A program made the position numbers and the translations under genes. The notes beneath the pieces were generated by a model. It did no database searches, was not told where the DNA came from, and saw only the letters and a program-made list of their open reading frames with translations. Of a DNA stretch of 64,000 nt, positions 30,631 through 54,358 are shown piece by piece. The stretch's first letter is position 1; every line of letters starts with the position of its first letter. The stretch is from contig CAWACT010000010.1 of NCBI GenBank assembly GCA_963780745.1, positions 49,318 through 113,317 of the forward strand. Reading direction: 5' to 3'. The stretch comes from an uncultured Actinomycetes bacterium (lineage in GTDB: Bacteria > Actinomycetota > Acidimicrobiia > Spongiisociales > DATADW01).

Positions 30631-30985
30631 ACGGAAGACGGAAGACGGAAGACGGAAGGCGGAAGTTGGAATCCGTCCCCCCGCAGGGGGGAAGGGACCC
30701 GCTGCGCAGCAGCGGAGTAGGAGGGCTACCGAGCTCCAACGGTGATCGACCCGCGGCCGTCGCACCCTAGGGAGTGAACCAGCCCCCCTCCCCCAACGCC
30801 TCCGGCGTCGGGTACTCCCCCCGCCGGGGGAGGGAAACATTGCTCCGTCCGCCCGCAGGGGGGAAGGGGCCCGCTGCGAAGCAGCGGGGAGGCGGGGATC
30901 GGCTCCCCCTCCCGGTGAGGGAGGGGGTTGGGGGGAGGGTGATTCCCGCCGCTCGCCCCAATCACCCCTCTGCTCGCTCCGGGGA
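30631..30985 (+). repeat. Mosaic repeat locus R3 (heptads 30631-30672, two module-B hairpin units, module C with G4 motif 30919-30939)
   Basis: Direct comparison with R1/R2/R5. Confidence 0.9.
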
Positions 30986-36855: not shown

Positions 36856-36969
36856 TCGGCTCCAATCTCGATTGACCAGCACAACGTCAGGAGCACCGCC
36901 GGGCTTCCCGCTGGAGTCGGGTAACACCCCCGACCGGGCACGGCCGACTCATGGGGAGGAGTTCAAATC

Positions 36970-37284
36970 TCAATCGAGGTGGAACACTTCGGCCAGCGCC
37001 TCCATCACAGTGTCGGCGGGGACATAGTCGAAATACTCGGCCATCGACTCCTGCCAGCGGGCGTTGACCTCCTCCGAGGCCATCCCGGCGAGAGCTTGCT
37101 CCAAGGAGACTGGTGTCTCGAAGTACCCGAAAAGGGTGCCGTCGCCGCGGAGGAACAAGCTGTAGTTGTGCCATCCGTGCCGTCTCAAGGCATCGAGCAT
37201 CTCCGGCCAGACCTCTTGGTGCGCCGCGCGGTATTCCTCCAGTCGATCCTTCCGGACCCGGAGCACAAAGCCGACGCGCTGCAT
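36970..37284 (-). CDS. rhaM: L-rhamnose mutarotase
   Basis: GAAGGAGG before ATG 37284; EYRAAHQEVWPEMLDALRRHGWHNYSLF motif. Confidence 0.85.
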   Translation of the reverse strand: MQRVGFVLRVRKDRLEEYRAAHQEVWPEMLDALRRHGWHNYSLFLRGDGTLFGYFETPVSLEQALAGMASEEVNARWQESMAEYFDYVPADTVMEALAEVFHLD

Positions 37285-37295
37285 TTGGGCCTCCT

Positions 37296-38057
37296 TCACA
37301 AGAGCTCCACCGACGACCGGAAAGGATCGAGCCGCCCGTCGCCAGGGTCGAGCTCGGTGACGAGGAGATCCACCTCTTCGAGCTCGAACATGCGCGCCGG
37401 CGCCCTGGTGCCGAGCTTGCTTCGGTCGACGGCGAGGATCAGCCTCGAACTCGTCTCGCTGAAGGCACGTTTCACCTCCGACTCGGCCAGGCTGGCCTCC
37501 GACGAACCGACATCGTGCGCCAAGGCGGCGCCGGAGCAGATGAACGCGTCGTAGAGGAACGACCGCGCTACCCGGACTGCCATCGCACCGACCAGGCTCC
37601 CGGTGCGGGGCTCCTCCGTCCCGCCGGTGAGCGTCGCCGCGATCCCGGGTTTCCCTGTCATCGCCTGGAAGGTGTCGACGCCGTTGGTCACCAATGTCAG
37701 GTCCCGACCCCCCTCGATGCTCCTGGCGAGACGATGGACGGTGCTCGATGCGTCGAGCGCCACCGTTCCCGTGGGGGGTATCAGCGGAAGCAGCTTCTCG
37801 GCGATTCGACTCTTCGCCTTGGCGTTGTGCCGGTGCCGCTGGACGAAGGGCTCAGGTCCCACCGCCACCGCGCCGCCTCGTACGCGGCGCACCGCCCCCA
37901 GCGCCTCCAATTCCGCCAGGTCGCGCCGGATGGTCATCTCGCTCACGCCGAACTCAATCGCCAGATCGTCGATGCGGACGCCTCCTCGTTCGACGATGAG
38001 ACGCCGCACGTCGATGAGCCGCTCTTCGGGGCTCATCGACTGGTGGTCGTCTGACAT
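37296..38057 (-). CDS. DeoR family transcriptional regulator (rhamnose operon)
   Basis: HTH IDDLAIEFGVSEMTIRRDLAELE plus DeoR C-terminal sugar-binding domain. Confidence 0.85.
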   Translation of the reverse strand: MSDDHQSMSPEERLIDVRRLIVERGGVRIDDLAIEFGVSEMTIRRDLAELEALGAVRRVRGGAVAVGPEPFVQRHRHNAKAKSRIAEKLLPLIPPTGTVALDASSTVHRLARSIEGGRDLTLVTNGVDTFQAMTGKPGIAATLTGGTEEPRTGSLVGAMAVRVARSFLYDAFICSGAALAHDVGSSEASLAESEVKRAFSETSSRLILAVDRSKLGTRAPARMFELEEVDLLVTELDPGDGRLDPFRSSVELL

Positions 38058-38058
38058 C

Positions 38059-39396
38059 TCAACTCTCCGCGGCGAGCCAGTGGTCGGCTCCATCCCGGCC
38101 GTCAAAATGCCCGAGGGCGATTCCCTGGACCACCGCATTGCCCAATGCCGTCGCCTCGGGATCGCCTACGAGGACCGGCAGCCCGGTGGATTCGGCAAGT
38201 AGATCCGCAAGGAGACCGGTCCGAGCCCCACCACCGACGAGGGCGAGCCGGGTCATCTCGGTCGCGGTGAGGACCTCCAGTTCACCTACGACCCGCGCCA
38301 CGCCGTGGGCGATCGACTCGAGGATCGACCGGACGACCACGCCTCGGGGTACCCCTGCCGGAAGCCCGGCTGCTGCGCGGATCTCGGCTTCCATGTCATC
38401 CGGTGCCACCAGCCGCTTGTCGGCGGCGTCGAACCGCGGCACCGGGGCGGTGACCGCGGTGGCTTCGTCGATGAGGACATCGACCGGCGGGTCACCCCAG
38501 ATCGGCCGGCAAGCTTCGACCATCCAGAAGCCGACCACGTTCTTGAGGAAGCGAAAGCCGCCGAGAGCGCCCGACTCGTTGGAGAAGTTTGCCGCCATGG
38601 CGGCGGGCGATGTGTCGGCGTCGGTGCGCTCGATCCCGACGATCACCCAACTTCCGGTAGACACGAACACCGTCCCCGGCTCCCTGCCGACCGGGACCCC
38701 CAGAAACGCCGATGCAGTGTCGTGCGAACCGACCAGGTGCACCGGGATCCCGCGCCATTTGCCTACCGCCTGCCCGGCAGCGGCCACGCCCGGCAGCATC
38801 TGAGGTGACATCCCGATCGCCTCGATCAATTCAGCGGACCATTGACCGCTCCTGGCATCGAGCAGGCCTGTGGTCGAAGCGTTCGACCGCTCGGCACCCT
38901 CGAAACCGGTCAACATCGAGACGAGAAGGTCGGGAAGCAGTAGCACGCGTGCCGCCCGCTCCATCTCGGTCCGATCGTGGGCGGCGAGTTGGAAGATGGT
39001 GTTGATCCCCATCAACTGGATACCCGTGATCTGGTAGAGGTGTTCGAGCCCGATCGACTCGGCCGTGGCCATCCACCCGTCGGTTCGAGAGTCGCGATAG
39101 GAGTAGGGGTCGGCGATCACCCGACCGGCGTCGTCGATCAACCCGTAGTCCACGCCCCAGCCGTCGATTCCGATCGACTCGACCGAACCCGACTCGATCC
39201 CGATCTCGAGCCCCATCTCCACTTCGGCCACCATCCTCTCCCAGTCCCAGCGGAGGGCTCCACCCGGGTCGGCGACCGGGCCGTGCGGCCAGCGGTGGAG
39301 GACCTCGACCGCCGGGGCGGCGGCGAGGTCGACGGCCGCCACTCGCACCGAGCCGGCACCGAGGTCGACCGCCAGCACCCGGGCGGAGTCGTTCAT
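38059..39396 (-). CDS. rhaB: Rhamnulokinase (FGGY family)
   Basis: LAVDLGAGSVRV, GIDGWGVDYGL, YQITGIQLMGINTIFQL. Confidence 0.85.
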   Translation of the reverse strand: MNDSARVLAVDLGAGSVRVAAVDLAAAPAVEVLHRWPHGPVADPGGALRWDWERMVAEVEMGLEIGIESGSVESIGIDGWGVDYGLIDDAGRVIADPYSYRDSRTDGWMATAESIGLEHLYQITGIQLMGINTIFQLAAHDRTEMERAARVLLLPDLLVSMLTGFEGAERSNASTTGLLDARSGQWSAELIEAIGMSPQMLPGVAAAGQAVGKWRGIPVHLVGSHDTASAFLGVPVGREPGTVFVSTGSWVIVGIERTDADTSPAAMAANFSNESGALGGFRFLKNVVGFWMVEACRPIWGDPPVDVLIDEATAVTAPVPRFDAADKRLVAPDDMEAEIRAAAGLPAGVPRGVVVRSILESIAHGVARVVGELEVLTATEMTRLALVGGGARTGLLADLLAESTGLPVLVGDPEATALGNAVVQGIALGHFDGRDGADHWLAAES

Positions 39397-40679
39397 AACC
39401 CGGTGGACACCGAGGCCAGGCCCCGCCTCTCGATCATCTCCTGGCGGTACCCGAGGGAGCGGTAGGCAGAAAGCGGCGCGATGGCGGCCCCTTGCCTCCG
39501 GCGCGCTTCGGCGACGAGAGGGCGAACATCGGTCCGGAAGGCGGACTGGAGGATTTCCTGGGCGGCGGTGGCGTCGTTGTCGTCCTGGGCGGCGATCAAT
39601 GCAGCGCCGTCCACCAGCATCGCCTGGGCATATGCGATTGAGACTGCCTCCGTCGACTGGATGAGGTCCTCGAGCGGGTCCTTGATGTTGTGGCTCTGGT
39701 CGATCATGTAGGCCAGGTCGGGAAGGCGGCCCTCGCCGGCGCGGATCAGCTCACAAAAGATGAGGAAGAGTTGGTAGGGGCTGATCGACCCGGTGGTGAG
39801 ATCGTCGTCGCCGTACTTGGAGTCGTTGAAGTGGAACCCCCCCAACCGACCGACCATCGCCAACCTGCTCACGATCTGCTCGATGTTGGCGTTGGGGAGG
39901 TGATGACCGAGGTCGACAAGGCAAGATGCCTTGTCACCGGCCGCCTGCGCCAGCAGGAGCGACGAACCCCAGTCGTGGTTGACCGTCGCATAGAAGGCGG
40001 GCTCGTACGGCTTGTGCTCGGTGTACATCCGCCAGTCATCGGGGAGATGGGCGTGGACCTGCTGCAGTCCTTCGGCGACGCGCTCGAACTGGGTCCGATG
40101 ATCCGCCTGCCCGGGGTGGTTGATCCCGTCCGCCAGCCAGACGGTCAGCGCCCGCGACCCGAGACGCACCCCGAGGTCGATCACTTGGACTTTGTGCTCC
40201 ACCGCCGCTTCCCGCACCGCCGGGTCTGCGTTGGCCAGGCTGCCGAACTTGTAGGTGATGGCGCCGTCCCTTGTGGTCGCCGGGTTGTCCTGGAAGGTGT
40301 TCGAGTTCATCGCATCGAACTCGATCGAGCGCTCCGCGGCGTACTCGCGAAGCCCGTCGGGGTCCTCGGGGTGGTCCCAGGGGACGTGGAGCGAGATCGA
40401 CCGGTTGCTGGCGGTGAGCGCGTTGAGCGTCGCCACGTCGTCGACCTTCTCCTCGGTGGTGCTCGGCTCACCGCCCAGGGGGAAACGCCCGAACCTGGTG
40501 CCCCCGGTCCCCACCGCCCACGACGGAGCCGCCACCGAGAAATCGACAAGGGCATCTAGCAGCGCGCTCGCCGTCACGGTGGAGGTCCGCTCCAGGCTGG
40601 TCTCCAGGGACCCGAGATCGGCGCGCAGCGCCTCCTCGTACGGTGCGTTCAGTTCGGCGATGCGTGCCGGGTCGATCAT
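39393..40679 (-). CDS. rhaI: L-rhamnose isomerase, actinobacterial type
   Basis: TIM-barrel sugar isomerase ~428 aa; operon context; ATGA overlap with rhaB. Confidence 0.8.
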   Translation of the reverse strand: MIDPARIAELNAPYEEALRADLGSLETSLERTSTVTASALLDALVDFSVAAPSWAVGTGGTRFGRFPLGGEPSTTEEKVDDVATLNALTASNRSISLHVPWDHPEDPDGLREYAAERSIEFDAMNSNTFQDNPATTRDGAITYKFGSLANADPAVREAAVEHKVQVIDLGVRLGSRALTVWLADGINHPGQADHRTQFERVAEGLQQVHAHLPDDWRMYTEHKPYEPAFYATVNHDWGSSLLLAQAAGDKASCLVDLGHHLPNANIEQIVSRLAMVGRLGGFHFNDSKYGDDDLTTGSISPYQLFLIFCELIRAGEGRLPDLAYMIDQSHNIKDPLEDLIQSTEAVSIAYAQAMLVDGAALIAAQDDNDATAAQEILQSAFRTDVRPLVAEARRRQGAAIAPLSAYRSLGYRQEMIERRGLASVSTGL

Positions 40680-40689
40680 GGAACGCCTC

Positions 40690-42738
40690 CTACCGTAGGA
40701 ATGCCGCAGCGACGCCGCTGTCTACCGGGATGATCAGACCTGTGGTCTGGCTGAGCGACCCGCCGACCAGGGCGAGCGCCGCCTGCGCCACGTGCTCGGG
40801 GAGCACTTCCTGTTTGAGCAGCGTCCTGTTGGCATAGAAGCGGCCGAGTTCTTCCTCGGGAACGCCGTAGACCCTGGCCCGTTCCGCCCCCCACCCGCCG
40901 GCGAATATCCCCGAGCCTTTCACCACCCCGTCGGGGTTGATCCCATTCACACGGATCCCCCACTCGCCGAGCTCGGCGGCGAGCAGCCGGACTTGATGCG
41001 CCTGGCTCGCCTTGGCTGACCCATAGGCGAGGTTGTTCGGCCCGGCGACCACGGCGTTTTTGCTCACCACGTAAACGATGTCGCCGCCCCTTCCTTGGGC
41101 GATCATCGCGGCGGCTGCCTGCTGCGACACCAGGAACGAGCCTTTTGCCATCACATCGTGCTGCAGGTCCCAGTCCTTTTCGGTTGTCTCGAGCAGTGCC
41201 TTCGAGATGGACAATCCGGCGTTGTTGACGACGATGTCGACCCCTCCGTATCGGAGCAACACCTCGTCTATCGCCGCCCGTACCGCTTCCGGGTCGGAGA
41301 CATCGGCCTGAACCCACATCGTCGTGTCGGTTGTTCCGATCTCGTTGGCGGTCTGGACCGCCACATCAGGGTCGATATCGGCTACAGCTACCGCCGCCCC
41401 GTTTTCGCTGAAGATGGCGGCGATGGCCCTGCCGATCCCCGAGCCGCCCCCTGTCACCAACGCCACCTTGCCGGTCAGCGGCTTCGCAGGAGGTCGCCGC
41501 CTCAGCTTCATCTCCTCCAGCATCCAGTACTCGATCCGGAACTTCTCCCGCTCGGGCACCGGCGCGTAGGTGGACACCGATTCCGCCCCCTTGACCACGT
41601 TGATGGCGTTGATGTAGAACTCGCCGGCAATCCGGGCGCTCGAAGCATCCGGCCCGAAGCTGAACATCCCCAAGCCGGGAACCAAGACGATGGCGGGGTC
41701 GGCCCCCCGCATTGGTGGTGTCTCCTCGTCGGCGTACCGCTCGTAGTACCGGCGGTACTCCTCGCGGTACTCGACGTGCAGTTCGTTGAACCGCTCGATC
41801 TGCGCCTCGATCGGCTCGGTGTGCGGCAGGTCGAGCAGCAACGGTCTGACTTTGGTACGGATGAAGTGGTCGGGACACGAGGTCCCCAGCGGGACGACCC
41901 GGGGGGCCGCTTCACGACCGATGAAATCGAGCACCAGATCGTCATCGAACCAATGGCCGACCACATGGTTGTCGGTGGAGCAGGCACCGCGGATCACCGG
42001 CGCCAAGGCGGCGGCGCGCCTCCGTTGCGCCTCCGGGGCTAGCGGCTCGAATCCGGGGCGGAGCGGTCCCAACGGATCGGGGCGCCCGTGCGTCTCCAGG
42101 AACTCCGCTGCTGTGCGGATTGTCGCCAGCGTCGTCGCCTCGCATTGCTCGGAGGTCTCGCCCCACGTCGTCAGCCCGTGCCCACCCAGGACCACGCCGC
42201 GCAGGCTGGGCTGATCCCGCGCCATCTCGGCGATATTCAGACCCAACTCGAACCCGGGTCGCCGCCATGGGACCCAGCCGATCTCGTCGCCGAAGCACTG
42301 CTTGGTCAGGGCCTCACCGTCGGCGGCCGCCGCCAGAGCGATGACCGCATCGGGGTGGAGGTGATCGACATGCGATGCTCCCAACAGACCATGCATGGCG
42401 GTGTCGATGCTCGGCGCCGCACCTGGCGGTCCAAAGCCGCAGTAGTCGAGGAGAGACTGCATCTCGTCCTCGTGCTGCTCCCCCCGGTAGACCGAGCGGA
42501 GCGCCCGCAGCCGATCCACCCGGAGAGCGGCCAGTTGGGGGACGCCGAGCGTCCCGAGATCCCCACCCGAGCCCTTGACCCACATGACCTCGACCTCGTC
42601 GCCCGATGCCGGGTCAATCGCCGTCGCCTTGGCCGAGGTGTTGCCACCTGCGTAGTTGGTGTTACGACGGTCGGCGCCCAGCCGGTTGGAGCGCCCAATC
42701 AACTGCGCGACAGCGGATGGCATGTCTGGACCTGTCAT
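40690..42738 (-). CDS. Bifunctional rhamnulose-1-phosphate aldolase / short-chain dehydrogenase
   Basis: N-terminus RSNRLGADRRNTNYAGGNTSAK aldolase; C-terminus VTGGGSGIGRA SDR with YVVSKNA; upstream 141 codons of track ORF discounted. Confidence 0.85.
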   Translation of the reverse strand: MTGPDMPSAVAQLIGRSNRLGADRRNTNYAGGNTSAKATAIDPASGDEVEVMWVKGSGGDLGTLGVPQLAALRVDRLRALRSVYRGEQHEDEMQSLLDYCGFGPPGAAPSIDTAMHGLLGASHVDHLHPDAVIALAAAADGEALTKQCFGDEIGWVPWRRPGFELGLNIAEMARDQPSLRGVVLGGHGLTTWGETSEQCEATTLATIRTAAEFLETHGRPDPLGPLRPGFEPLAPEAQRRRAAALAPVIRGACSTDNHVVGHWFDDDLVLDFIGREAAPRVVPLGTSCPDHFIRTKVRPLLLDLPHTEPIEAQIERFNELHVEYREEYRRYYERYADEETPPMRGADPAIVLVPGLGMFSFGPDASSARIAGEFYINAINVVKGAESVSTYAPVPEREKFRIEYWMLEEMKLRRRPPAKPLTGKVALVTGGGSGIGRAIAAIFSENGAAVAVADIDPDVAVQTANEIGTTDTTMWVQADVSDPEAVRAAIDEVLLRYGGVDIVVNNAGLSISKALLETTEKDWDLQHDVMAKGSFLVSQQAAAAMIAQGRGGDIVYVVSKNAVVAGPNNLAYGSAKASQAHQVRLLAAELGEWGIRVNGINPDGVVKGSGIFAGGWGAERARVYGVPEEELGRFYANRTLLKQEVLPEHVAQAALALVGGSLSQTTGLIIPVDSGVAAAFLR

Positions 42739-42865
42739 TGCAGCCGTCTTGATCGGCCGGTCGTTAGAACTCTCATTATCTCCAAAAGCGATCCCAGTAC
42801 AGGATCCTCCAGTCGTGGCGGCAGTCTGGACCCGGACCGGAGCCCGGGCCCAGGTTGCCCTCGGG

Positions 42866-44037
42866 TCAGCTGTCAATGTTGTCGGCGTTGAACTTCTTGA
42901 TCGGCCCCAACAGGACACGAAGGCCGGCATCGCGACCAGGATCTTCGTCGATCGTGTACTCACCCAGGCGACCTGCCTCGAACTGTTGACCTGCCTCCGC
43001 CTCGATCTGGCCGGTGGCGAGGCCGTAACCGACGTAGTAGGACAGGTAGCCGAGGTCGGGGAAGCTCCACAAGGCGAATTCAGGGGCGCATCCGCTGAGC
43101 GTGTAGTCGCGCATCTCGGTCGAGACTCCCAAGCCGGAGACCTTGACCCGATCACATTCATCGGCTTGCGTCACGACCTGGGCGGCCGCCACGATGCCGA
43201 CGGTGGTCGGGGCCATGATCAGGTCCAGGTCGGGATTCTCGAGCAACTCCTCCGCCCGATCCTGGCTGTCCTGGGGCACGTCGTTCCCGTAGACGGTGTC
43301 GACCAGTTCGATGTTCTCGTACTCCGGGGTCGCCAGCAGTTCCTCGAGTGAAGCGATCCAGATGTTCTGGTTCGCTGCTTCGGGCGTCGCGGAGAGAATG
43401 GCCATCTGGCCCCCCTCCTCGCCGAGGATGCTGCGAGCCATCTCCGCCATCACCTGGCCGGCACCGCTCAGATCGGCAGGCGCGATGTACACCGACTCGC
43501 CCTCAGCGGACGGGATCGGGGAGTCCCATGTCACGACCGGGATGCCAGCCTCTTGCGCAGCCGCCGCGGCCGGGCCGAGCTGATCACCGGCGTTGTTCGA
43601 GACCATGATGACGTCGACCTGTTGAGTGACCGCGTTGGTGACGATGTCTATGCCGGCGGTGGTGTCGGCGCAGTCGGCCGGGCCCACCAGCTCGGTCGGT
43701 TCGGATTCGAGCTCCCCGGCCGCCTCCACCGCACCATCGTTCGCCTGCGGGAACACTGGGTTGGTGGTGCACTTCCCAAGGAATGTCCCGACGATCGAGC
43801 CCGCCGGGCCGATCGTCACCGGCCCTCCGCTGCGACTGTGGTATCGGCCGCGACCGTGGTCTCGGCCCCTGCTGTCGTGTCCGCTGCGACGGTGGTGTCC
43901 GCCGCCGCCGTGGTGTCCGCACCAGCGGTGGTGTCCGCTCCGGCGGTCGTGTCGGCTGCACCACCGCCACATGCCGCTACGACCATGGCCAGCGCCACCA
44001 GGGCGACCGCGGGGATGCGTCGTCTAATCGCTGTCAC
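42866..44037 (-). pseudogene. Sugar (rhamnose-type) ABC substrate-binding lipoprotein, one frame break (CC run ~43820-43824)
   Basis: GAAGGAGA before GTG 44037; lipobox [10 protein letters not shown], (A/G)ADTT linker repeats (ORF 43816..44070), then [12 protein letters not shown]... in ORF 42866..43972. Confidence 0.75.
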
Positions 44038-44112
44038 GATGTCTCCTTCTATTGGTTGGTCTGTTCGCATACGCTCATAGGTGACTCGATGGACCTCCGT
44101 TTCGCTCGTACG

Positions 44113-45095
44113 TCAGGGTGGGGCATGGGCGACCACTGGTGCGGTACGCCTTTGACGTGCCTTCTGGACGAGATTCGGAATCAGGACCGACCCGATGAGC
44201 AGGAGCCCAATCACGCCCGTCTGGATGAGCCCGTCCACGTTGGTCAGGCCCATCCCGTTGCGGATGTTGAGGACCGTGAAGATGGCCAAGGCCACCCCCA
44301 GCATCGACCCTGAACCTCCGAAGATGCTCACCCCGCCGAGAAGGACGATCGTGATGATGTCCAGCTCGAAGAATTGGGCCAGATCGCCGCGCACCGATCC
44401 CACACGGGCGGCGAACAACACACCCGCCAGGCCGGCCACCAAGCCCGAAGTCACAAAGATCTTCAGCTTCGCACCGGCTACTCCGATCCCCGCAAACCGG
44501 GCGACCTCGGCGCTGTTGCCGATCGCATACACCTTGCGGCCAAATGCGCCGCGCTCGAGAATGATCCAGGCGATTGTTAGCTCGACGATGAAGATGACTA
44601 CCGCAAGTGGGAGCGGACCGAGCAACGGTTGCTGACCGAGTCGGTCGAACCATTCCGGGAAGTCACCCACCGACGTGTCCTCCATCAAAACCCGCGCCGC
44701 TCCGCGGAAGCCGATCAATCCGGCCAATGTGACCACGAGCGAGGGCAGGCCGAAGCGGATGACGACGAGCCCTTGAAGCAGCCCCGCTGTGGCTCCTGCC
44801 GCTATCGCAATTGCGACACAGACCCGAACGGCACGTCGCCCCCCATGTACAGGGCAGCCATCACGGCAGCGGAGAAACCCATCACCGAGGCTACGGACAA
44901 GTCGATCTCCCCGTTGATGATGACGAAGGCCATCACAACGGCGACGATGATCTTCTCGACGGAGAGCCCGAACAGATTGATGAAGTTGCCGACGCCGAGA
45001 TAGACCGGCGTAATGGCGATGTTGATCACGGTCGTGGCAATCAACAGCCCGAGAAGGAGGACCTCCCATCGATGGCTCCGGGCCCACTCACGCAT
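44113..45095 (-). pseudogene. Sugar ABC transporter permease, one frame break (G-run ~44823-44825)
   Basis: ORF 44802..45146 (MREWARSH...GGDVPFG) joins ORF 44113..45087 ([18 protein letters not shown]...). Confidence 0.75.
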
Positions 45096-46178
45096 CGGCC
45101 GACCCACCCTCGGGGATGCCCTGAGCAGCAGGTGCGGGCTCGCCAATCGATCTCCGCACTTCAGCCGCCCAGCGAGAATTGAGCCGCTTCCTCAGAGTCG
45201 CATCGAGCACGACCGCCACCAGGATCAAGGCTCCGAGAGCAGCCTCGATCAGAACTCGCTGATCGCCGGCAGCCTGATCAGGCTCAGCCGCAATTCATCG
45301 AGGAGCAGTGCGCCCAGGAAAGCGCCCAGCACGGTCCCCGAGCCCCCCGAGGATGCTGACCCCCCCACAACGGCGGCGGCGACCGATCGCAGTTCCAGTC
45401 CAGCCCCGGCAGCAGCGCTGATGGTGCCGACCCGGGTCAGGTACATGAAGCCGGCCAGCCCGGCGAGGGCCCCCGAGGTGAGAAAGGCGAGGAAGATCAG
45501 TCGGGCGGCCGGCAGCCCCGCTTGGCTGGCGGCATCGGGGTTGGATCCAATGGCGTAGAGCCTTCGACCACCTCTCACTCGAGCAAGGAACCATTGGAAG
45601 AACGCAACCACGGCGATCGTGATCACGAATATCAAGGTGAGGTCGAACCCACCAAGGGTGAGCACGGAACGCTGGTTGAATTCGAGAACCCAATCGGGCA
45701 ATCGATCGACCGTGATGTCGATGCCCCCCGCATACAGGCCCATTGCCGTGCGAAATACCGCCAGCGTCCCCAGCGTGGCGATTATCGCCGGTACGCCACC
45801 GAAGGCAACGAGCGCGCCGTTGATCGAGCCGAGCACGGCTCCTGCCAAAGATCGCAATGCCAATCGCCGCGATCGGCCCAGCTGCGCTAAAGGTCGCAAG
45901 AAAGTCGCCGGTCAGATAGGCGGTGAATCCGACGATGGATCCGACCGACAGATCGACGTTGCGGGTGATGATCACTATGGACTGGCCCACTGCCAGGATC
46001 GCCACGATGACCACGCTCGTAGTAAGCCGATCGAAGAAGCGCGCCCCGGGTAATCATCTATAAAGAAACTGAAGACGATCATCGAGAATGCGATCATCCC
46101 CAGGAGTGATATCTCCTTGATCCGATCTGGCTGCGGCAAGCGCCTCGAACGCGCTATCGCACCGGCATCCGTGGTCAT
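45090..46178 (-). pseudogene. Sugar ABC transporter permease, three frame breaks (~46044-46047, ~45847-45849, ~45250)
   Basis: Pieces from ORFs 45975..46178, 45295..46014 and 45249..45899, plus unlisted tail WIEAALGALILVAVVLD ending at TGA 45092-45090. Confidence 0.7.
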
Positions 46179-47666
46179 TCGGCGCCCACCGCCAGCGCCA
46201 TCACCTGTTCCTGGGTCGCTCTTTCACCGGGGAAGATGTCTCTCAGCACCCCTTCCCGCATGACCGCTACGCGATCACTCATCGCCAGGACTTCCGGCAG
46301 ATCCGATGAGATCAAGATGATGCCCAGTCCGGAACGCGCCAACTCGTCGATGAAGCGGTGTACGTCCGCCTTAGCACCTACGTCGATTCCTCTGGTGGGC
46401 TCATCGAGAACCAGAACACGCGGCTTTGCGTTCAGCCACTTGGCGAGCATCGTCTTCTGCTGATTGCCACCGGACAACTGCCCCACCGGTGTCTTCAGGC
46501 TCGGTGTCTTGATCCCGAGCCGTTGCCGGAAGGATTCGGCATCGGAACGTTCTCGCGCCGCGTCGAGGAGGCCGAATCGCGGTATAGCGCTTTAGCGTGG
46601 CCAGGGTGATGTTGGCGGTTACCGACTGGGGTAGGGAGAGGCCCGAGCGCCTCCGATCCTCCGACAGGTAGGCGATCCCGTGTCTCAGGGCATCGCCCGG
46701 GGAGGAGATGGCCAGTTGCCGGCCATCGAGCTCAATCGAGCCGGTGTCGGCGGGTGCGATACCAAAGAGGGCGAGGCCGACGTCGGTCCGGCCGGCGCCT
46801 ACCAGACCGGCGAACCCGAGCACCTCACCTCGCCGCAACTCGAAACTGATGTCTGCGAAGACGCCCGTGCGGCCCAGGCCGCTCACCTTGAGTACCGGAT
46901 CTCCCTCGTGATGCTCCGTCCGCGCGAAGAAGTCGGCAGGGTCTCGGCCGACCATCTCCCGGACCAGCGAGTCCTCGGTCACATCAGCGGCAACGCGGGT
47001 CGAGATGTGCCGCCCATCGCGGAACACCGAGATGCGATCCGAGATCGCAAAGATCTCCTCGAGGCGATGGGTTATGAAGAGGATGGCGGCCCCGGAGGCC
47101 CTGAGTTGCCTCGCCTGGCGGAACAGCCGATCCACCTCGTGAGCGGACAAGGCCGCCGTCGGCTCGTCCATGATCAGGACTCGGGTGTCGAGCGAAATTG
47201 CCTTGGCGATCTCGACGGCCTGCTGCCCGGCGACGGTCAGGCCGGCCGCGGGCAGACGCGGATCGATGTGGACGTCGAGAGCGGCCAGGATCTGGGATGC
47301 ATCGCGAGCCATTGCCTGCCGGTTGACCAGACGTCCCCTGTCCTGGTGACCGATGAAGATGTTCTCCGCAACGCTCAGGTCGGGAAAGATCGACGGTTCC
47401 TGATAGATGGCGGCGACACCGAGATGTTGCGCCTCGGCTGCATTCCGAGGAGCAAACGGTTGACCGTCCAGGATCATGGTGCCTTCGTCGGCCGCGTAGA
47501 TTCCGGTCATCAACTTGATCAGGGTGGACTTGCCCGCCCCGTTCTCGCCGACCAGGGCATGGATCTCGCCGGAATGGAGCGTGAGGTCCACATCGGATAG
47601 CGCTTGGGTCGCACCGAAGCGCTTGGACACACCCTCGATGACGAGGAGAGCCGCTTCCTCGGTCAT
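46175..47666 (-). pseudogene. Sugar ABC transporter ATP-binding protein (duplicated NBD), one frame break (~46578-46582)
   Basis: Walker A GENGAGKST and GLVGAGRT; second LSGGNQQK only in ORF 46175..46486; joins via [10 protein letters not shown]...[14 protein letters not shown]. Confidence 0.75.
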
Positions 47667-47732
47667 GGGTTCCACGAAAGCGTGGCCAGCCCGACGCCCG
47701 TTCCCACCCGACCGCCTCCATCACGTTCAAAG

Positions 47733-47758
47733 GTGTGAATTCTCACACTACCTCACAC
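47733..47758. promoter_or_regulatory. Inverted repeat GTGTGA-ATTC-TCACAC plus a third half-site TCACAC (47753-47758) in the divergent rha/pobA region
   Basis: Read directly; candidate operator. Confidence 0.4.
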
Positions 47759-47818
47759 GGTTGGACGCGGGAAGCCCCCTTTTCGCGGTGGGTCCCACGT
47801 GCCGACACGATCAGCCGC

Positions 47819-47846
47819 CGTCCGCCGTCTGCCGTCTGCCGTCTTC
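47819..47846 (-). repeat. Degenerate heptad array (CCGTCCG, CCGTCTG x2, CCGTCTT), locus R4
   Basis: Reverse complement relates to the ACGGAAG/GACGGAA heptads of R1/R3/R5. Confidence 0.7.
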
Positions 47847-47860
47847 CCCGTTCCGGCAGA

Positions 47861-49041
47861 ATGTCGGGATCGACACACAAGTGGTGATCGTCGGCGGCGG
47901 ACCGGCGGGTCTGCTGCTCTCTCATCTGCTCCACCTCGGGGGCGTCGAGAGCGTCGTCCTCGAGCGTCAGACCAGGCAGCACGTCATGGAACGGATACGT
48001 GCCGGCGTCCTCGAGTTCGGCACCACCCGGGTGCTGCGCGACGCCGGGCTCGGCGAGCGGATGCTGCGCGAGGGCTTCATCCACCGAGGCGTCGCCATAG
48101 CCTTCGGAGAGCGGGTGCTCGGATCGACTTCAAGGAGGCGACCGACAAGTACGTCACCATCTACGGGCAGACCGAGGTGCAGAAGGACCTCTTCGCCGCG
48201 GCGGATGCCCGGGGCGCTCTCGTCATCGACCGAGTTGAAGAGGTCGAGATCCACGACGCCGACACCGAATCGCCATCAGTCACCTTCGTGCGTGATGGCA
48301 CGACGGGAGCGGGTGGGCACCGTGTTCGTCGCCGGGTGCGATGGGTCGCACGGGGTGAGCCGAGAGACGATCCCGGTCCAGGTGATCCGCACCTTCGAGC
48401 GCGACTACCCGTTCGGTTGGATTGGGGTCCTCTCGGAGACACCGCCGGTGAGCAGCGAGCTCATCTACGCCAACAGCGCGCGAGGCTTTGCCCTCTGCTC
48501 GATGCGGAACCCTCATCTGAGCCGCTATTACGTGCAATGCCCGCTCGACACGACCACAGAGGACTGGCCCGACGACCGGTTCTGGACCGAGCTGAAGAGC
48601 CGGCTCCCCCGTCTTGTCAGCAACCGGATGGTGAGCGGGCCTTCGATCGAGAAGTCGATCACCCCGCTGCGCAGCTTCGTGGCCGAGCCGCTCCGCTTCG
48701 GGCACCTGTTCCTGGCCGGTGACGCCGGTCACGTCGTCCCTCCTACCGGCGCCAAGGGGCTCAACCTCGCCGTGTCCGACGTGGTCTACCTGTCCCGCTC
48801 CTTCATCGAGTACTTCAAGGACAAGAGCGAAGACGGGATCAATCGCTACTCCGAGCAGGCGCTCCGACGGGTTTGGAAGGCGGTCCGCTTCTCATGGTGG
48901 ATGACCACCATGCTCCACCGTTTTCCCGACGACGGAGAGTTCGGGCTGAAGATCCAGCACGCCGAACTCGACTACCTGGCCTCTTCCAAGGCGGCGCAGA
49001 CCGCCCTCGCCGAGAACTACATCGGTCTCCCATTCAGTTGA
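47861..49041 (+). pseudogene. pobA: 4-hydroxybenzoate 3-monooxygenase, three frame breaks (~47866-47868, ~48120, ~48300)
   Basis: VVIVGGGPAGLLLSHLL, RIDFKEATDKYVTIYGQTEV (ORF 47799..48722), AGCDGSHGVSR, FLAGDAGHVVPPTGAKGLNLA; matches remembered PobA order. Confidence 0.75.
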
Positions 49042-49834
49042 TCATGGCCCAGGGTTCTCCAGAAACCCGGCAAGCTCCTCGGTGAAGACCTCCGGTCGAT
49101 CGAGGTTGGCAGATGTGCGCCGCCCCCTCGAGGATCCTGAGCCGACTCCCGCGTATGGCGGTATGAAGGCGCTCCATGTCGGAGGCGGGGGTCGAGGCAT
49201 CGAGATCGCCGCCGATGAGAAGAGTCGGCACGCCTATCGATCCCAATACACCGCCTAGGTCAGAGATGGCGAGGGCGGCGCAGCAGCCGGCGTACCCCTC
49301 CGGGTCGGTGGACAGCAGAACATTCATAGCGCTTGCGTACCAGTCGGGATGCACCGACGGGAAGCCCGGCGCGAATCGAGCCGGGACTGTCTCTCGCAGC
49401 GCGGCCATACCACCGCTGCGCACCGCCTCGATCCGGGAGTTCCAATAGGCTGCGTCCCCGATTCGGGCGGCGGTGTTGGCCGCGGTCATCGACAGCAACA
49501 GATCGGGGCGGTGGGCGGCGATCCAGAGTGCGATCTGACCTCCCATCGACAACCCAACGATGTGGAACCGACTCAGTCCCGCTGCTTCAGCGGCGGCCAG
49601 AACGTCGGCCGCCAGCATCTCGAGCGAATACGGCCCTGGAGATGAGGCAGAGCGTCCGTGGCCCCGGGTGTCAACCGCGACGATGCGGAAGTCCGCCCCT
49701 AACGCTTCGATTTGCGGAGCCCACATCGAATGGTCCCAACCGATCGAGTGGGCCAGGACCAAGCCGGGGCCATACGCCGGCCCCGAGACCAGGTATGCGA
49801 TCCGGCAACCGCCGACATCGACGGAATCGGTCAC
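49042..49834 (-). pseudogene. pcaD: 3-oxoadipate enol-lactonase, C-terminal frame break (~49110)
   Basis: alpha/beta hydrolase GLSMGG; GTG 49834 overlaps TGA (GTGA); true tail ANLDRPEVFTEELAGFLENPGP lies in an alternative frame ending 49042. Confidence 0.65.
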
Positions 49835-50958
49835 CCGTGCGTCCTCCTCGAGCGTGTCGAGAAGCGTGTCCACCAGTGCGCCCGCCTCGCCGACGTCGCG
49901 ATCCATTTCTCCGAGGTTGGCCTCCATCGCCTCTGGGTCCACCTCCAGCTCGGCCACAGCTCTGGCGGTGGCCTCGACGGCGGCGCCGCCCGCTTGAAAT
50001 GCGGCGGGCACGGCCCACCACTCGGCGTGCCACCCTCCAACGCCCCGCTCCAACTCGGGCGGGCGGGCCGTGAGGACGAGGGCTGCCGCCCCGCGGCAGA
50101 CCTCGGCGGCGGCCATGGCTCGCATCGGATCGATCGGGTTCTGCTTCCCGGCAATGCTCGACGAGCTTCCCGGTCTGGTGCGTACCTCTCCGAGGTGCGA
50201 GAGCAACACGAGGTCGCCTGCGATCTTGGCCATGTCACCCGCTAGGGCAGCCACCGCCGCCACCGCGTCCGCAATCGGGGAGCGGTCGCCGTGCCATGGC
50301 GACGGCGGATCGGCCAGCCCAAGCGACTCGGCCAGCAGGGCGGCGACCTCGGCGCCGCGGCCACCCAACATGTGGCGGGTGCCGACGGCACCGCCGAGTT
50401 GGATGGGCAGGCTCTCGCGGTGGCGCCGCAACAGGATGCGATGCCTTCCAGCCGGCGCCAACCAGTAGGCGACCCGCAAACCGAAGGTGGTGACACCGGC
50501 AGGTTGGAGGAAGGTGCGGGCCAGTGCCGGCGTGTCCCGGTGGGTCGTGTGCCAGCCCAGCCAGATCGGAGACCAGGGGATCGAGATCGGCGAGCAAGCA
50601 CGTCGATCGCCTCCCCGACTAGGAGCATGGTGGCGGTGTCGACCACGTCCTGTGTGGTCGCTCCCCGATGGAGGGCCTCCCCCGCCTCAACGGAGAGTTG
50701 CTCCCTCATCTGGTCGAGCAGCGGCATCACCGGCGTCCCCTCTTCCCAGCCGGCGCGGAAGACCTCGGTGGCGTCCACGATGATTGCCTCGGCGGCAAGT
50801 GCGATCTCCGTCGCTGCATCAGCGTCGATGAGCCCACACTCCGCCTCGGCCGCGGCGAGCGCCGCCTCGAACCGCAACATCGCCGCCGCCCGGGCCTCTG
50901 GACTGAAGACGGCGGACAATGCGTCAGTGGTGAACCCGGGGTCGAACCAGCCGCTCAT
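49831..50958 (-). pseudogene. pcaB: 3-carboxy-cis,cis-muconate cycloisomerase, multiple frame breaks (~50592, ~50540, +T/-G pair at 50144-50158)
   Basis: Pieces in ORFs 50242..50958, 50235..50597 and 49034..50479; fumarate-lyase-family layout. Confidence 0.65.
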
Positions 50959-51707
50959 CCGCGGTTGCCCCGGTGCGCCTCTTCGGTCCTCTCATACAGC
51001 TTGCGGAGCACCATCAACTCTTCGTTCGTAGGTGGCTCGGTCTCGCCCAGGTCGGCGGAGAACCGCACATCCCATCCCGTCGCCTCGACCACATCGCTCC
51101 TCTCTACACCGGGGTGGAACGAGTCGACAATGAGTTCGTTGCTCACCGGATCCGGGGTGAGGGTGCAGAGATCGGTGATGACGAGCGTCGGGCCGCGCGT
51201 TGTCACGCCGAGCGACGACCGCTCCGACCCCGTCGGCCCGAAGCCGAGCGAAGTCACGAAGTCCACTCGCTCCACCAGCGCCTTGTTGGTGTGGCGCATG
51301 GTGACGAACACCTGGCCACAGGAGGTGGCGATCTCCGGAGCACCACCACCCCCGGGGAGCCGCACCTTGGGCCGGTGGTAGTCGCCGATCACGGTCGTGT
51401 TGATGTTGCCGAACCGGTCGAGTTGCGCCGCGCCGAGAAACCCGACCGAGATCCGGCCCCCCTGCAGCCAATAGCGGAACATCTCGGATACGGAGACGGT
51501 GGTCAGCGATGTCTCCGCCAGCTCTCCGTCGCCGATGGAAAGCGGCAGTACCTCCGGTTTGGTGCCGATCGTGCCCGACTCGTATATCAGCGTGATCCCG
51601 GGTGCGTGCGTCAGCCGGGCCAGATTGCACGCCGCCGACGGTGCCCCGATCCCGACGAAGCAAACGTCGTCGTCGCGCAGCGCCCTCGCCGCGGAGATGA
51701 TCATCAT
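50955..51707 (-). CDS. pcaJ: 3-oxoadipate CoA-transferase subunit B
   Basis: MMIISAARAL..., ESG motif (LIYESGTIG); stop overlaps the pcaB start (ATGA). Confidence 0.85.
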   Translation of the reverse strand: MMIISAARALRDDDVCFVGIGAPSAACNLARLTHAPGITLIYESGTIGTKPEVLPLSIGDGELAETSLTTVSVSEMFRYWLQGGRISVGFLGAAQLDRFGNINTTVIGDYHRPKVRLPGGGGAPEIATSCGQVFVTMRHTNKALVERVDFVTSLGFGPTGSERSSLGVTTRGPTLVITDLCTLTPDPVSNELIVDSFHPGVERSDVVEATGWDVRFSADLGETEPPTNEELMVLRKLYERTEEAHRGNRG

Positions 51708-51728
51708 CTCATCCGGGGTGACTGTCGC

Positions 51729-52544
51729 TCACGTCGTCGCTCCGAGCACGTTGTCCTCCATCCAGGCAAGGAACCTGTCGCGTTCCCGGGAGATGGCGTC
51801 CCAAGCCAGGTAGAAGGCATTGTCACGCCGGTAGTAGCCGTGGGCGTACGAGGGAGCAGCACCGCCCGGGACCACAGCCACCATGTCGATCGTCCAGGCG
51901 GGGAGGACCACGCTGTTGAGGCTGGGTGGGTCGAGATCGTCCACCAGTTCTTCGACTGTGACCACCGATCGAGCGGAAGCAAGCACCACCTCCTTCTGCA
52001 CCCCCACGATCCCCTCGACGAGCACATTGCCGTCGCGGTCGGCCCGCTGGGCGTGGATGATCCCGACATCCGGCCGCAGCGCGGGGACCGCGGCCAGTTG
52101 CTCGCCGGTGAAAGGGCAGGTGACGGTTCGGATCGATGGGTTAACCTCGGGAAGGCTGGTGCCCAAGTAGCCGCGGAACGCGGCAAAGGGAAGACCAGAA
52201 GCACCTGCCGCCCAAGCGTTGGCCATGGCGGCGTGGCTGTGCTCCTCGTAATCCAACGGCCGTGGCCAGCCGGCCTCCACGGCATCCCGGAAGCGGTGCA
52301 GCGAGCCGACACCGGGGTTGCCGCCCCATGAAAAGACGAGCTTGGCCGCGGTGCCCATCCCGATCATCTGGTCGTAGATGAGGTCGGGGGTCATCCTGAT
52401 CAGTGTGAGGTCAAGCCGCCGTTGACGGATGATCTCGTGTCCGGCCGCGAAGGGGATGAGGTGGGTGAACCCCTCGAGGGCGACGGTGTCCCCGTCGCGC
52501 ACCGTTGCCGCAATCGCCTCACGCAGCGAGGTCAGTTCTGCCAT
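51729..52544 (-). CDS. pcaI: 3-oxoadipate CoA-transferase subunit A
   Basis: CoA-transferase family I alpha subunit features; intact. Confidence 0.85.
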   Translation of the reverse strand: MAELTSLREAIAATVRDGDTVALEGFTHLIPFAAGHEIIRQRRLDLTLIRMTPDLIYDQMIGMGTAAKLVFSWGGNPGVGSLHRFRDAVEAGWPRPLDYEEHSHAAMANAWAAGASGLPFAAFRGYLGTSLPEVNPSIRTVTCPFTGEQLAAVPALRPDVGIIHAQRADRDGNVLVEGIVGVQKEVVLASARSVVTVEELVDDLDPPSLNSVVLPAWTIDMVAVVPGGAAPSYAHGYYRRDNAFYLAWDAISRERDRFLAWMEDNVLGATT

Positions 52545-53128
52545 CAGAACTCGAAGAAGACGGTCTCGTCGTCACCCTGGAAGCGAACGTCGAAGCGATA
52601 CACCTGAGGGTCACCCGGCGTACCGCGCTCGGCGATGAGGGTGTGACGGCGCTCGGAAGGGACCATCCCCAGCACCAGGTCGGCCCGGTTGGCCACTTCC
52701 TCATCGGAGAAGTAGACGCGGGTGAACGATGGGTTGAGCATCCCCCTCGCCTGGATGATGAAGTTGAGGTGAGGCGCCTGCAACTCGCCCTCCGGATCGG
52801 GCACTGGGCCTGGCTTGACCGACTCGATCAGGTACTCGCCGGTCTGGAAGTCGGTGAGCGCCCGCCCGAACCCGGTGAAACCGTCGTCGAGGTCGATCTC
52901 GGTGCGATTGTCGTCGGGATGCCGGTACCGCCCGGCGGTGTTGGCCTGCCACACCTCGATTAGGGCGTCCTCGATCGGCTGGCCATCGCCGTCGAGGACC
53001 CGGCCGGCGACCCGGATCCGACTTCCGGGAACGCCCGGACCGGCCAGCATGTTCTCGCCCTCGGCGCCTAGCCGGAGCGAGAAATAGGGGCCGAGCGTCT
53101 GCGACGGCGTCTGTCCGAGCTGGGCCAT
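52544..53128 (-). CDS. pcaG: Protocatechuate 3,4-dioxygenase alpha subunit
   Basis: ATG 53128 overlaps the pcaH stop (TGATG); TPSQTLGPYF, ANTAGRYRHP, PHLNFIIQARG. Confidence 0.85.
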   Translation of the reverse strand: MAQLGQTPSQTLGPYFSLRLGAEGENMLAGPGVPGSRIRVAGRVLDGDGQPIEDALIEVWQANTAGRYRHPDDNRTEIDLDDGFTGFGRALTDFQTGEYLIESVKPGPVPDPEGELQAPHLNFIIQARGMLNPSFTRVYFSDEEVANRADLVLGMVPSERRHTLIAERGTPGDPQVYRFDVRFQGDDETVFFEF

Positions 53129-53844
53129 CACTGATCGAGCGGAGTCGCCATCGGGCCGCGCAGCACGATGTCCCAGCGGTATCCGATAGCCCAGTTCTCC
53201 TCGGTCACATCGTGGGCGTACGCGGCCACCAGGCGGTTCCTGGAATGGGCCGGAACGGAGTTGAAGATCGGGTCGAGTGGGAGCAGCGGGTCGCCCTCGA
53301 AGTACATCTGGGTCACCAGCCTGCTGCCCCACGATGTGCCCAACAGCGAGAAGTGGATGTGCGACGGCCGCCAGGCGTTGGGATGGTTGGCCCAGGGGTA
53401 TGGGCCTGGCTTGATGGTGGTGAGCCTGTACCCGCCATCGTCACCGGTCAGCGTCTGTCCGGCGCCGAGGAAGTTGGGGTCAAGCGGCGCCGGGAAGGCC
53501 GTCTCCCTCCAATGGGTATAACGGCCGCTGGCGTTGGGCTGCCACACCTCTATCAGCGCACCAGGAACTGGGTTGCCACCGTCGTCGAGCACGCGTCCGG
53601 TGACGATTATCCGCTCACCGATCGCCGGCGATCCGGTGCCGGCGTTGGTGGTGAGGTCGGCGTCATCCGGCGAGAGCTCGGCACGCACCGTCCCCGGCCC
53701 CGTGGTCTCCGAGAGGGTTTGCACGATCCGAACCATGTCCTTGGTGGGTGATCGCTTCACCGTCGAGCGGTATTCGGCGTAAAGAAATGGCGGGTGGTCG
53801 GCATAGGCACGCGAGCCGTAGAAGGTGACCAGCGGCTCGGTCAC
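53128..53844 (-). CDS. pcaH: Protocatechuate 3,4-dioxygenase beta subunit
   Basis: PNASGRYTH, RPSHIHFSL iron-ligand motifs. Confidence 0.9.
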   Translation of the reverse strand: MTEPLVTFYGSRAYADHPPFLYAEYRSTVKRSPTKDMVRIVQTLSETTGPGTVRAELSPDDADLTTNAGTGSPAIGERIIVTGRVLDDGGNPVPGALIEVWQPNASGRYTHWRETAFPAPLDPNFLGAGQTLTGDDGGYRLTTIKPGPYPWANHPNAWRPSHIHFSLLGTSWGSRLVTQMYFEGDPLLPLDPIFNSVPAHSRNRLVAAYAHDVTEENWAIGYRWDIVLRGPMATPLDQ

Positions 53845-54203
53845 GTTTCGAGGACCCGCCTGGCGGCGGCGAAAGCGGTGTTGGCCGCGGGCACACCGGC
53901 GTATGCGGCAACGTGGAGCAGTGTCTCTGTCACCTCCTCTGGTGTCGCACCCGTCGCTGCCGCCGATCGAAGGTGGAGCTCCACCTCCTCCCGTCCCAGC
54001 GCAGCGAGGATGGCGATGGTGACCAGGCTCCGCGTCCTCCGGTCAAGCCCCGGGCGCGCCCATATCCCGCCCCACACCGACTCGGTGATCCACCTCTGGA
54101 AGTCGGCGTCGAGTCCGCTCGCCTCACCGGTCGCCGCATCTACATGTGCGTCGCCGAGCACCTCGCGCCGCACCTTCATCCCGTCCTCGTAGCGATCGGT
54201 CAC
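53841..54203 (-). CDS. pcaC: 4-carboxymuconolactone decarboxylase
   Basis: AhpD/CMD-fold motif WARPGLDRRTRSLVTIA...HL; GTGA overlap with pcaH. Confidence 0.85.
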   Translation of the reverse strand: MTDRYEDGMKVRREVLGDAHVDAATGEASGLDADFQRWITESVWGGIWARPGLDRRTRSLVTIAILAALGREEVELHLRSAAATGATPEEVTETLLHVAAYAGVPAANTAFAAARRVLET

Positions 54204-54358
54204 AGGAAACGGACGCTAACGGAGTCGGAAGACGGAAGACGGAAGTCCGCTCCCCCTCCCGGTGAGGGAGGGGGTTGGGGGAGGGTGATTTCCGCCGGGA
54301 CCAATCACCCCCTCCGCTCGCTTCGCTCGCGCCTCCCCCTCACCGGGGGAGGCAGCTG
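54204..54358 (+). repeat. Mosaic repeat locus R5 (heptads 54224-54244, module C with G4 motif 54266-54285, hairpin CCTCCCCC-TCACC-GGGGGAGG)
   Basis: Direct comparison with R1/R3; fills the whole gap between two same-strand genes. Confidence 0.9.

Follow-up and report, generated by a model that had tools for sequence, protein, structure and literature searches.

Pseudogene-rich reductive genomes, such as those of Mycobacterium leprae and recently host-restricted symbionts, keep their essential genes intact and carry stops, larger deletions and raised dN/dS. Genes are also reportedly fragmented by indel errors of long-read assemblies, as Watson and Warr are said to have described in 2019 (Nat Biotechnol), and Sereika et al. 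in 2022 (Nat Methods) reportedly dealt with the same class of long-read indel consensus error. For metagenome-assembled genomes (MAGs) of the long-read Microflora Danica catalogue, indel consensus errors, split genes and lowered completeness have been described (PMC12313526). The catalogue is Nanopore-only, assembled with Flye --nano-hq and one Medaka round; its authors checked it for potential Nanopore-associated errors, and some lower-coverage MAGs had reduced coding density (PMC12313526).

The window analyzed here, a 64,000-nucleotide stretch of the genome (G000) of an uncultured Acidimicrobiia bacterium, carries 14 frame breaks in neighboring genes for rhamnose uptake and for 4-hydroxybenzoate and protocatechuate degradation. 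Judged by comparison with related sequences, these breaks very probably arose as errors in the assembly consensus and do not exist in the living bacterium, whose rha and pca genes are thus very probably unbroken.

Fourteen frame breaks in the rha and pca genes

Positions 43000 to 52500 of the window were aligned with same-genus assemblies (three or four of G001–G004) and with the ENA contig L160. No independent same-species assembly turned up in the protein collection, where P0004 was the best non-self match (96% protein identity); its locus, L160 (∼88% DNA identity), was used as a fourth outgroup. MAFFT and BLAST alignments yielded exactly 14 window-private indels of non-3n length, from 43829 to 50597 and all within coding sequence, in agreement with a sequence-only reading that had counted about 14 breaks between 43816 and 50958. 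That reading had also named frameshift-aware protein comparison as a check, and tblastn with intact G001 proteins as queries indeed produced frame switches matching the indels. The genes are unbroken at all 14 sites in G001, G003 and L160, and the 14 breaks are confirmed as genuinely present in the deposited sequence. The affected features are as follows.

42866 to 44037, minus strand: rhaS-like sugar ABC substrate-binding protein; one break, a private −1 at ∼43823–43829 (site 43829); tblastn frames −2 then −1
44116 to 45095, minus strand: sugar ABC permease 2; one break, a private −1 at ∼44819–44826 (site 44824); tblastn frames −3 then −2
45088 to 46178, minus strand: sugar ABC permease 1; five private indels, at 45250 (−1, CC to C), 45343 (+1, C5 to C6), 45364 (−1, CCCCNCCC to C7; a C8-like run), 45847 (+1, A) and 46044 (−1, C5 to C4), all four relatives agreeing against the window
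46175 to 47675, minus strand: sugar ABC ATP-binding protein; one break, a private −2 at 46579–46582 (site 46579); tblastn frames −3 then −1
47882 to 49041, plus strand: pobA, 4-hydroxybenzoate 3-monooxygenase; two breaks, a private pair at 48120 (−1) and 48299 (+1); tblastn frames +1, +3, +1
49054 to 49840, minus strand: pcaD, 3-oxoadipate enol-lactonase; one break, a private +1 at 49111
49840: pcaB/pcaD junction; one break, a private +1 that joins the two reading frames into one
49841 to 50958, minus strand: pcaB-like 3-carboxy-cis,cis-muconate cycloisomerase; two breaks, private +1 at 50546 and 50596; tblastn frames −2 then −1
43823 to 50597, unstranded: hot block; 14 frame-breaking indels in 6.8 kb, or 2.2 per kb of coding sequence

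The intact 497-aa ATPase homologue P0004 aligns with the window fragment only as far as the break. The indel pair in pobA is compensating, leaving ∼60 codons (180 nt) out of frame between its members. An upstream repair proposed earlier, GGG to GGGG at 47866, fell away, all four genomes being identical there; the start region is likewise the same in all genomes, and a GTG near 47882 is the more likely pobA start. Among NCBIfam models, pobA scored 606 bits against TIGR02360 (cut-off 539) and pcaD 262 bits against TIGR02427 (cut-off 256), both over the cut-off. The best match of pcaB, TIGR02426, reached 288 bits, under its cut-off of 356, and the binding protein reached 255 bits against TIGR02637 (RhaS), under a cut-off of 342; the ATPase and both permeases matched as generic sugar ABC components. 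Three further features were noted in these genes: a Thr/Ala-rich linker in the binding-protein gene that is shorter by 21 nt, in frame, at ∼43904–43930; an additional in-frame −3 at 46165, by the ATPase entry; and a pcaB loop reading SSxIAGKQNP in place of the usual SSxMPxKxNP, common to the whole genus.

Damage across the genome and in sister assemblies

G000 comprises 12 contigs and 3.45 Mb, with a completeness estimate of 78%. Using a 7-state three-periodic Markov frame model, in which same-strand switches >30 nt from a stop were counted, at least 1,263 frameshift-like switches were detected over all 12 contigs (0.37 per kb overall, 0.27–0.48 per kb on the individual contigs), compared with 1 switch in 132 kb of the same-genus control G001. 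Because only ∼30% of the breaks verified by alignment were recovered by the model (4 of the 14 block breaks and 35 of 111 in a genome sample), 1,263 is a lower bound. When random G001 contigs were compared with G000, 1.09–1.12 non-3n indels were found per kb of coding sequence, which extrapolates to a genome total of ∼3,100. Essential genes are among those affected. The sole secY locus lies in three frame pieces, map and rplC in two each, and the str-operon fusA in four; this fusA is intact in G001–G003 and has differently placed breaks in G004 and G005. The genes rpoB and rpoC (7.5 kb together) are unbroken, which is compatible with patchy errors but means that not every essential gene is damaged. 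As a further essential-gene witness, tuf was rejected owing to a second, intact copy on contig 12.

Patchiness was evident in the gaps between events, for which a two-rate mixture was far better than a single rate (2ΔlogL = 318), with a mean spacing of ∼0.8 kb in hot stretches and ∼5 kb in clean ones; the window's 43.8–50.6 kb region is one moderately hot stretch. Event density was weakly and positively correlated with GC (r = 0.24), probably an effect of how well the frame model detects breaks.

Private breaks also occur in the sister assemblies. The rha and pca genes of G002 and G004 contain 8 and 7 other private breaks, respectively, likewise mostly insertions, and the alignment revealed none in these genes of G001, which is likely a short-read assembly. 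The noisy sisters have few contigs and low completeness, and a contig of G004 matches MFD09267.bin.2.26 of the Microflora Danica long-read catalogue. Contiguity set against completeness, together with the provenance of G004, suggests that G000 was most likely built from noisy long reads, probably by the same Nanopore-only Flye and Medaka route as that sister. The G000 consensus very probably contains roughly one false single-base indel in every kb of coding sequence, unevenly spread. Hot stretches may be places where few reads lie behind the consensus, and locally low coverage is a plausible cause.

Clustering of the breaks and possible co-assembly of strains

Of the 22 net frame breaks counted in 49 kb of comparable coding sequence, the hot block contains 14, although it contributes just 6.2 kb (binomial P = 3e-8); in a scan statistic 14 was reached in 0 of 20,000 simulations, a clustering beyond chance. 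Both edges of the block are intragenic, the block starting in the binding-protein gene and ending in pcaB, and three transcription units, from both strands, are covered. The earlier view that the neighboring rha and pca genes are unbroken held, alignments of the flanks from rhaM to rhaEW (36969–43800) and across the pca genes (50958–54238) revealing no coding frame break. Damage is accordingly not matched to functional units, the remainder of both pathways (rhaEW, rhaI, rhaB, rhaM and the other pca genes) being clean.

One source of patchy errors would be the collapse of related, co-assembled strains, with polishing over heterogeneous columns producing indels in the more variable stretches. 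Consistent with this explanation, 500-nt tiles genome-wide had 27 mismatches to G001 when free of indels, a figure that increased to 39 when they held four or more. However, block identity to relatives (91–95%) is not below that of the flanks (84–96%), the codon-position bias of mismatches is normal (117/84/455 in the block by first, second and third position), and a mosaic boundary was not seen. Collapsed strains are therefore an unlikely source, if one that keeps a small share of the probability, and they would still be an artefact, so that the biological conclusion is unchanged. A foreign or mosaic haplotype in the block, or an excess of substitution errors there, was considered as well and rejected on identity and codon-position pattern.

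Indel spectrum and possible homopolymer miscalling

Classical homopolymer-length miscalling, as with 454, Ion Torrent or older Nanopore chemistry, could in principle be the single cause. Three block sites (45343, 45364 and 46044) are indeed run-length errors, and these 3 of 14 indels lie in C runs of ≥5, compared with ∼1.4% expected. Contact with runs of ≥2 is at chance level (7–8 of 14 indels, with 46% of bases in such runs), the other 6–7 not touching a run at all. Of 111 indels in a genome sample of 102 kb, 35 (32%) touch a run of ≥2 as opposed to a random expectation of 46%, 7 touch a run of ≥4, and insertions exceed deletions by 80 to 31; across the genome, event density is uncorrelated with homopolymer density (r = 0.02). 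Homopolymer miscalling as sole cause is largely refuted by these counts and distinctly improbable. Neighboring indels are of the same type in 71% of cases compared with 60% expected (P = 0.02), which is weak evidence.

The sequence-only reading had taken the breaks, where the repair was unambiguous, to be usually one missing G or C in a run. This description does not fit the block, in which 7 deletions are balanced by 7 insertions. The underlying mechanism survives in part: of the 14 sites it suits 3–7, chiefly on the rha side, whereas in the pobA/pca half most breaks are single-base insertions outside runs. The spectrum, insertion-rich and mostly outside runs, differs from the textbook Nanopore signature of homopolymer deletions.

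Selection on the interrupted genes

Substitutions in the broken genes have a pattern of full purifying selection, as judged from codon alignments, without sign of relaxed selection. The block and the genome sample had the same dN/dS, 0.141, and the window flanks had 0.115; for permease 1, despite its five breaks, it was 0.038 versus G001. Among 2,329 aligned codons of the block there were 0 in-frame stops, and the block contains no larger deletions.

One or two of the 14 indels could be genuine. That a minority are real (e.g., the run-length changes in permease 1 or the 180-nt stretch of pobA) and mark a very recent loss of rhamnose uptake or 4-hydroxybenzoate hydroxylation, masked by assembly errors, is very improbable. 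Very improbable, too, is genuine recent pseudogenisation, in which rhamnose uptake and steps of 4-hydroxybenzoate and protocatechuate breakdown were lost via real frameshifts: the affected catabolic genes are dispensable and the breaks private to the lineage, but the damage begins and ends within genes and spares other genes of the same pathways, dN/dS is unchanged without in-frame stops or larger deletions, similar breaks number ∼3,000 in the genome and extend to fusA and the single secY, and the 1-kb permease-1 gene, for all its five indels, differs from a 92%-identical relative at 7 first and 0 second codon positions, which is not neutral decay. The preference already voiced for assembly or sequencing indel error over coordinated pseudogenisation is thus strongly supported by the breaks in essential genes, their genome-wide spread, the unchanged dN/dS and the sisters' own private breaks.

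Comparison with known systems and implications for annotation

The meaning of the 14 breaks is a data-quality warning only. Ordinary gene callers applied to G000 would yield thousands of split or truncated proteins, and the same annotation hazard exists for at least G002, G004 and G005. False outcomes would include pseudogene calls, an apparent pathway loss of rhamnose uptake or of the protocatechuate branch, and understated completeness. Metabolic inference from G000 first requires either annotation that allows for frameshifts or a consensus polished with accurate reads and, given the patchiness of the errors, local clusters of broken genes in this assembly should never be taken as biology without the reads.

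Like Mycobacterium leprae-type genomes, G000 has many frameshift-interrupted genes; unlike them, its essential genes are broken and its substitutions fully constrained. It more closely resembles long-read assemblies with indel errors, being contiguous yet low in marker completeness (12 contigs, 78%), with ∼1 indel per kb of coding sequence and breaks that hit essential genes and are private to each assembly. It departs from the usual long-read errors, which are homopolymer deletions, in being insertion-rich and mostly affected outside homopolymers, and from the standard description in its strong patchiness, with hot stretches of several kb. In gene content and order, the locus matches systems of Actinomycetota on both sides: the RhaSTPQ-type rhamnose ABC transporter with rhaEW-rhaI-rhaB-rhaM catabolism, and the protocatechuate branch of the β-ketoadipate pathway (pobA, pcaHG, pcaB, pcaD/C and pcaIJ). 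Once the frames are read through, both pathways are ordinary, and their interruption is very probably an artefact.

Private indels of the block

Window positions 43000–52500 were aligned with the orthologous stretches of four other assemblies of the same genus (G001, G002, G003, and G004; 87–92% identical) and with L160, an ENA contig carrying a homologous rha locus (88% identical). Fourteen coding indels with lengths that are not multiples of three were private to the window, i.e., absent from the aligned relatives, and frame changes matching them were found gene by gene in tblastn searches with the uninterrupted G001 proteins as queries. The alignment thus bears out the count of about 14 breaks made in the sequence-only reading.

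Private frame-breaking indels (window position; change in nucleotides: −, deletion; +, insertion)
43829, −1
44824, −1
45250, −1
45343, +1, run-length error in a C run of five or more
45364, −1, run-length error in a C run of five or more
45847, +1
46044, −1, run-length error in a C run of five or more
46579, −2
48120, −1
48299, +1
49111, +1
49840, +1
50546, +1
50596, +1

The earlier statement that usually one G or C is missing does not describe this set, which divides into seven deletions and seven insertions. Homopolymer error, the mechanism proposed at that stage, accounts for only part of the breaks: three of the 14 (45343, 45364, and 46044) are genuine length errors of C runs of at least five, but six or seven, mainly in the pobA/pca half, are gains or losses of a single base away from any run. 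Another four to five touch a run of 2–3, which is chance level because runs of two or more take in 46% of all bases. The repair GGG to GGGG suggested at 47866 finds no support: the four genomes compared, the clean assembly G001 among them, do not differ at this site.

Substitution pattern

Nei–Gojobori dN/dS, with window codons read in the frame set by the orthologous genes of G001, was 0.141 for the block (43816–50958), 0.141 for 36,000 codons drawn from randomly chosen parts of the genome, 0.115 for the window flanks, and 0.038 for permease-1, the sugar ABC permease gene at 45088..46178 (minus strand) with five breaks in 1 kb. Permease-1 exhibited no second-position differences from G001 in 304 codons, no in-frame stops were present in the 2,329 codons read against G001 orthologues, and block mismatches with G001 were distributed 117/84/455 over the three codon positions. 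Genes that had drifted for long enough to accumulate 14 indels would not be expected to show this pattern of dN/dS, stops, and codon positions. Identity to relatives was not lower inside the block than outside, so the block has neither raised substitution error nor a foreign haplotype.

Frame damage throughout the assembly

The assembly under study comprises 3.45 Mb in 12 contigs (66–67% G+C) and is estimated to be only 78% complete. All contigs were decoded with a seven-state HMM using a three-periodic second-order Markov frame model trained on long high-GC3 ORFs, and same-strand frame switches at a distance of over 30 nt from the upstream frame's stop were counted as events. This yielded 1,263 switches (0.37 per kb; 0.27–0.48 per kb on each contig), as compared to one in a 132-kb control from G001. 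Alignment of 21 arbitrary G001 contigs to the assembly detected 111–115 indels not divisible by three over 102 kb of interior coding sequence, i.e., ∼1.1 per kb of coding sequence and ∼3,100 by extrapolation to the genome; the HMM recovers only ∼30% of indels found by alignment. By the alignment measure, the block (2.2 per kb) lies at about twice the genome average, and the window outside it is unusually clean relative to that average.

Essential genes are among those broken. The str-operon fusA falls into four consecutive frame pieces (EF-G model positions 3–129, 126–423, 422–559, and 544–688), the sole SecY locus into three, and the genes for methionine aminopeptidase and ribosomal protein L3 into two each. 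Intact rpoB and rpoC are in keeping with a patchy error process. One tuf copy is split, but the second is intact, so tuf was not counted. A second EF-G-like gene (C3, 394945–396966; ∼640–650 bits, just below the TIGR00484 cut-off) is conserved at corresponding loci in G001–G005.

Unchanged dN/dS, genome-wide breaks, and broken essential genes support assembly error as the origin of the 14 frame breaks, the explanation favored over pseudogenisation in the sequence-only reading; the feature is not biological.

Comparison across the genus

G001, G002, and G003 each have fusA in one piece; it is split in two in both G004 and G005 and in four in the assembly under study, with break points differing from genome to genome. 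Across the rha/pobA/pca region orthologous to window 44400–51300, G002 (L003/L029) and G004 (L005/L030) carry eight and seven private frame-breaking indels of their own, mainly single-base (+1) insertions, and G001 carries none. G002, G004, and G005 call for the same caution as the present assembly. Completeness is 72–85% for the few-contig genomes and 93% for G001 with its 440 contigs. No independent assembly of the same species was found in a search of the protein collection. The Microflora Danica catalogue is a Nanopore-only assembly set, produced by Flye --meta --nano-hq followed by a single Medaka round; its authors, checking for errors linked to Nanopore sequencing, found lower coding density in some of the less deeply covered MAGs (PMC12313526). 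Contiguity, low completeness, and a shared error spectrum suggest that the present assembly came from the same or a similar Nanopore-only pipeline.

Clustering of the breaks

Within the 57 kb of window covered by G001 (49 kb of comparable coding sequence), 22 net frame breaks were counted, 14 of them within 43816–50958, which holds 6.2 kb of that coding sequence (binomial P = 3e-8; 0/20,000 scan-statistic simulations reached 14). The others affect genes named by eye as PaaC-like, cyclase domain, LLM oxidoreductase, AfsR-like regulator, YceI-like, HisA-like, and xylulokinase-like; the PaaC-like, LLM, AfsR-like, and YceI-like genes were already listed in the sequence-only reading. The cyclase catalytic domain carries a −1/+1 pair relative to G001 at 11959 and 12020, 61 nt apart, the same kind of event as the block indels. 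As proposed earlier, the flanks are intact: alignment to relatives revealed no coding frame break from rhaM to rhaEW (36969–43800) or in the pca genes at 50958–54238.

Genome-wide, gaps between HMM events fit a two-exponential mixture (means 0.83 and 5.1 kb; 2ΔlogL = 318 versus a single rate). Bins of 7 kb with eight or more events numbered 28 (2.3 expected) and bins without events 108 (38 expected). Event density was unrelated to the density of homopolymers of five or more (r = 0.02), and neighboring events showed a weak tendency to share their type (P = 0.02). The block begins inside the binding-protein gene, spans the rha transporter operon (minus), pobA (plus), and the pca operon (minus), and ends inside pcaB; it is thus a physical stretch rather than a functional unit. 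Most economically, the cluster would be a stretch of several kilobases, comparable in length to one long read, in which the consensus rested on few or one-strand reads.

Genes in and beside the block

NCBIfam matches agree with the gene names first given. The sugar ABC transporter is represented by a RhaS-like binding protein, an ATPase, and two permeases; pobA and pcaD exceed their curated cut-offs, and pcaB is the best match for its gene but falls below its cut-off (288 versus 356 bits). The L160 cluster is complete and intact (ATPase, two permeases, binding protein, rhaEW, rhaI, rhaB, DeoR regulator, and rhaM).

In the binding-protein gene, the Thr/Ala-rich (ADTTVAA) linker that follows the lipoprotein signal is shortened in frame by 21 nt (43904–43930) relative to all relatives; this low-complexity stretch cross-matches other loci in the genome, and the shortening adjoins the left edge of the block (first break 43823–43829). 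A dispersed G+C-rich intergenic repeat family (30629–30907, 47825–47860, and other intergenic sites), with tandem units of GGAAGACGG as well as palindromes (e.g., CCCCCCGCAGGGGGG), looks REP- or MITE-like, with ∼160 BLAST matches in the assembly and many copies in G002; a related motif, CCGTCT(G/T)CCGTCT, is found in the spacer separating pobA from the rha ATPase gene. The pcaB SS-loop (50144–50158, minus) reads S-S-x-I-A-G-K-Q-N-P, as compared to the fumarate-lyase signature SSxMPxKxNP; I-A-G-K-Q-N-P is found without indel in G001, G002, and G004 and is thus native to the genus rather than an assembly error.

In the pobA start region (47861–47890), the ATG at 47861 does not share the frame of the GxGxxG N terminus (QVVIVGGGPAG) in 4/4 genomes, and a GTG near 47882 is probably the true start. 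With this start, the protein would begin ∼3–4 residues later than Pseudomonas PobA.
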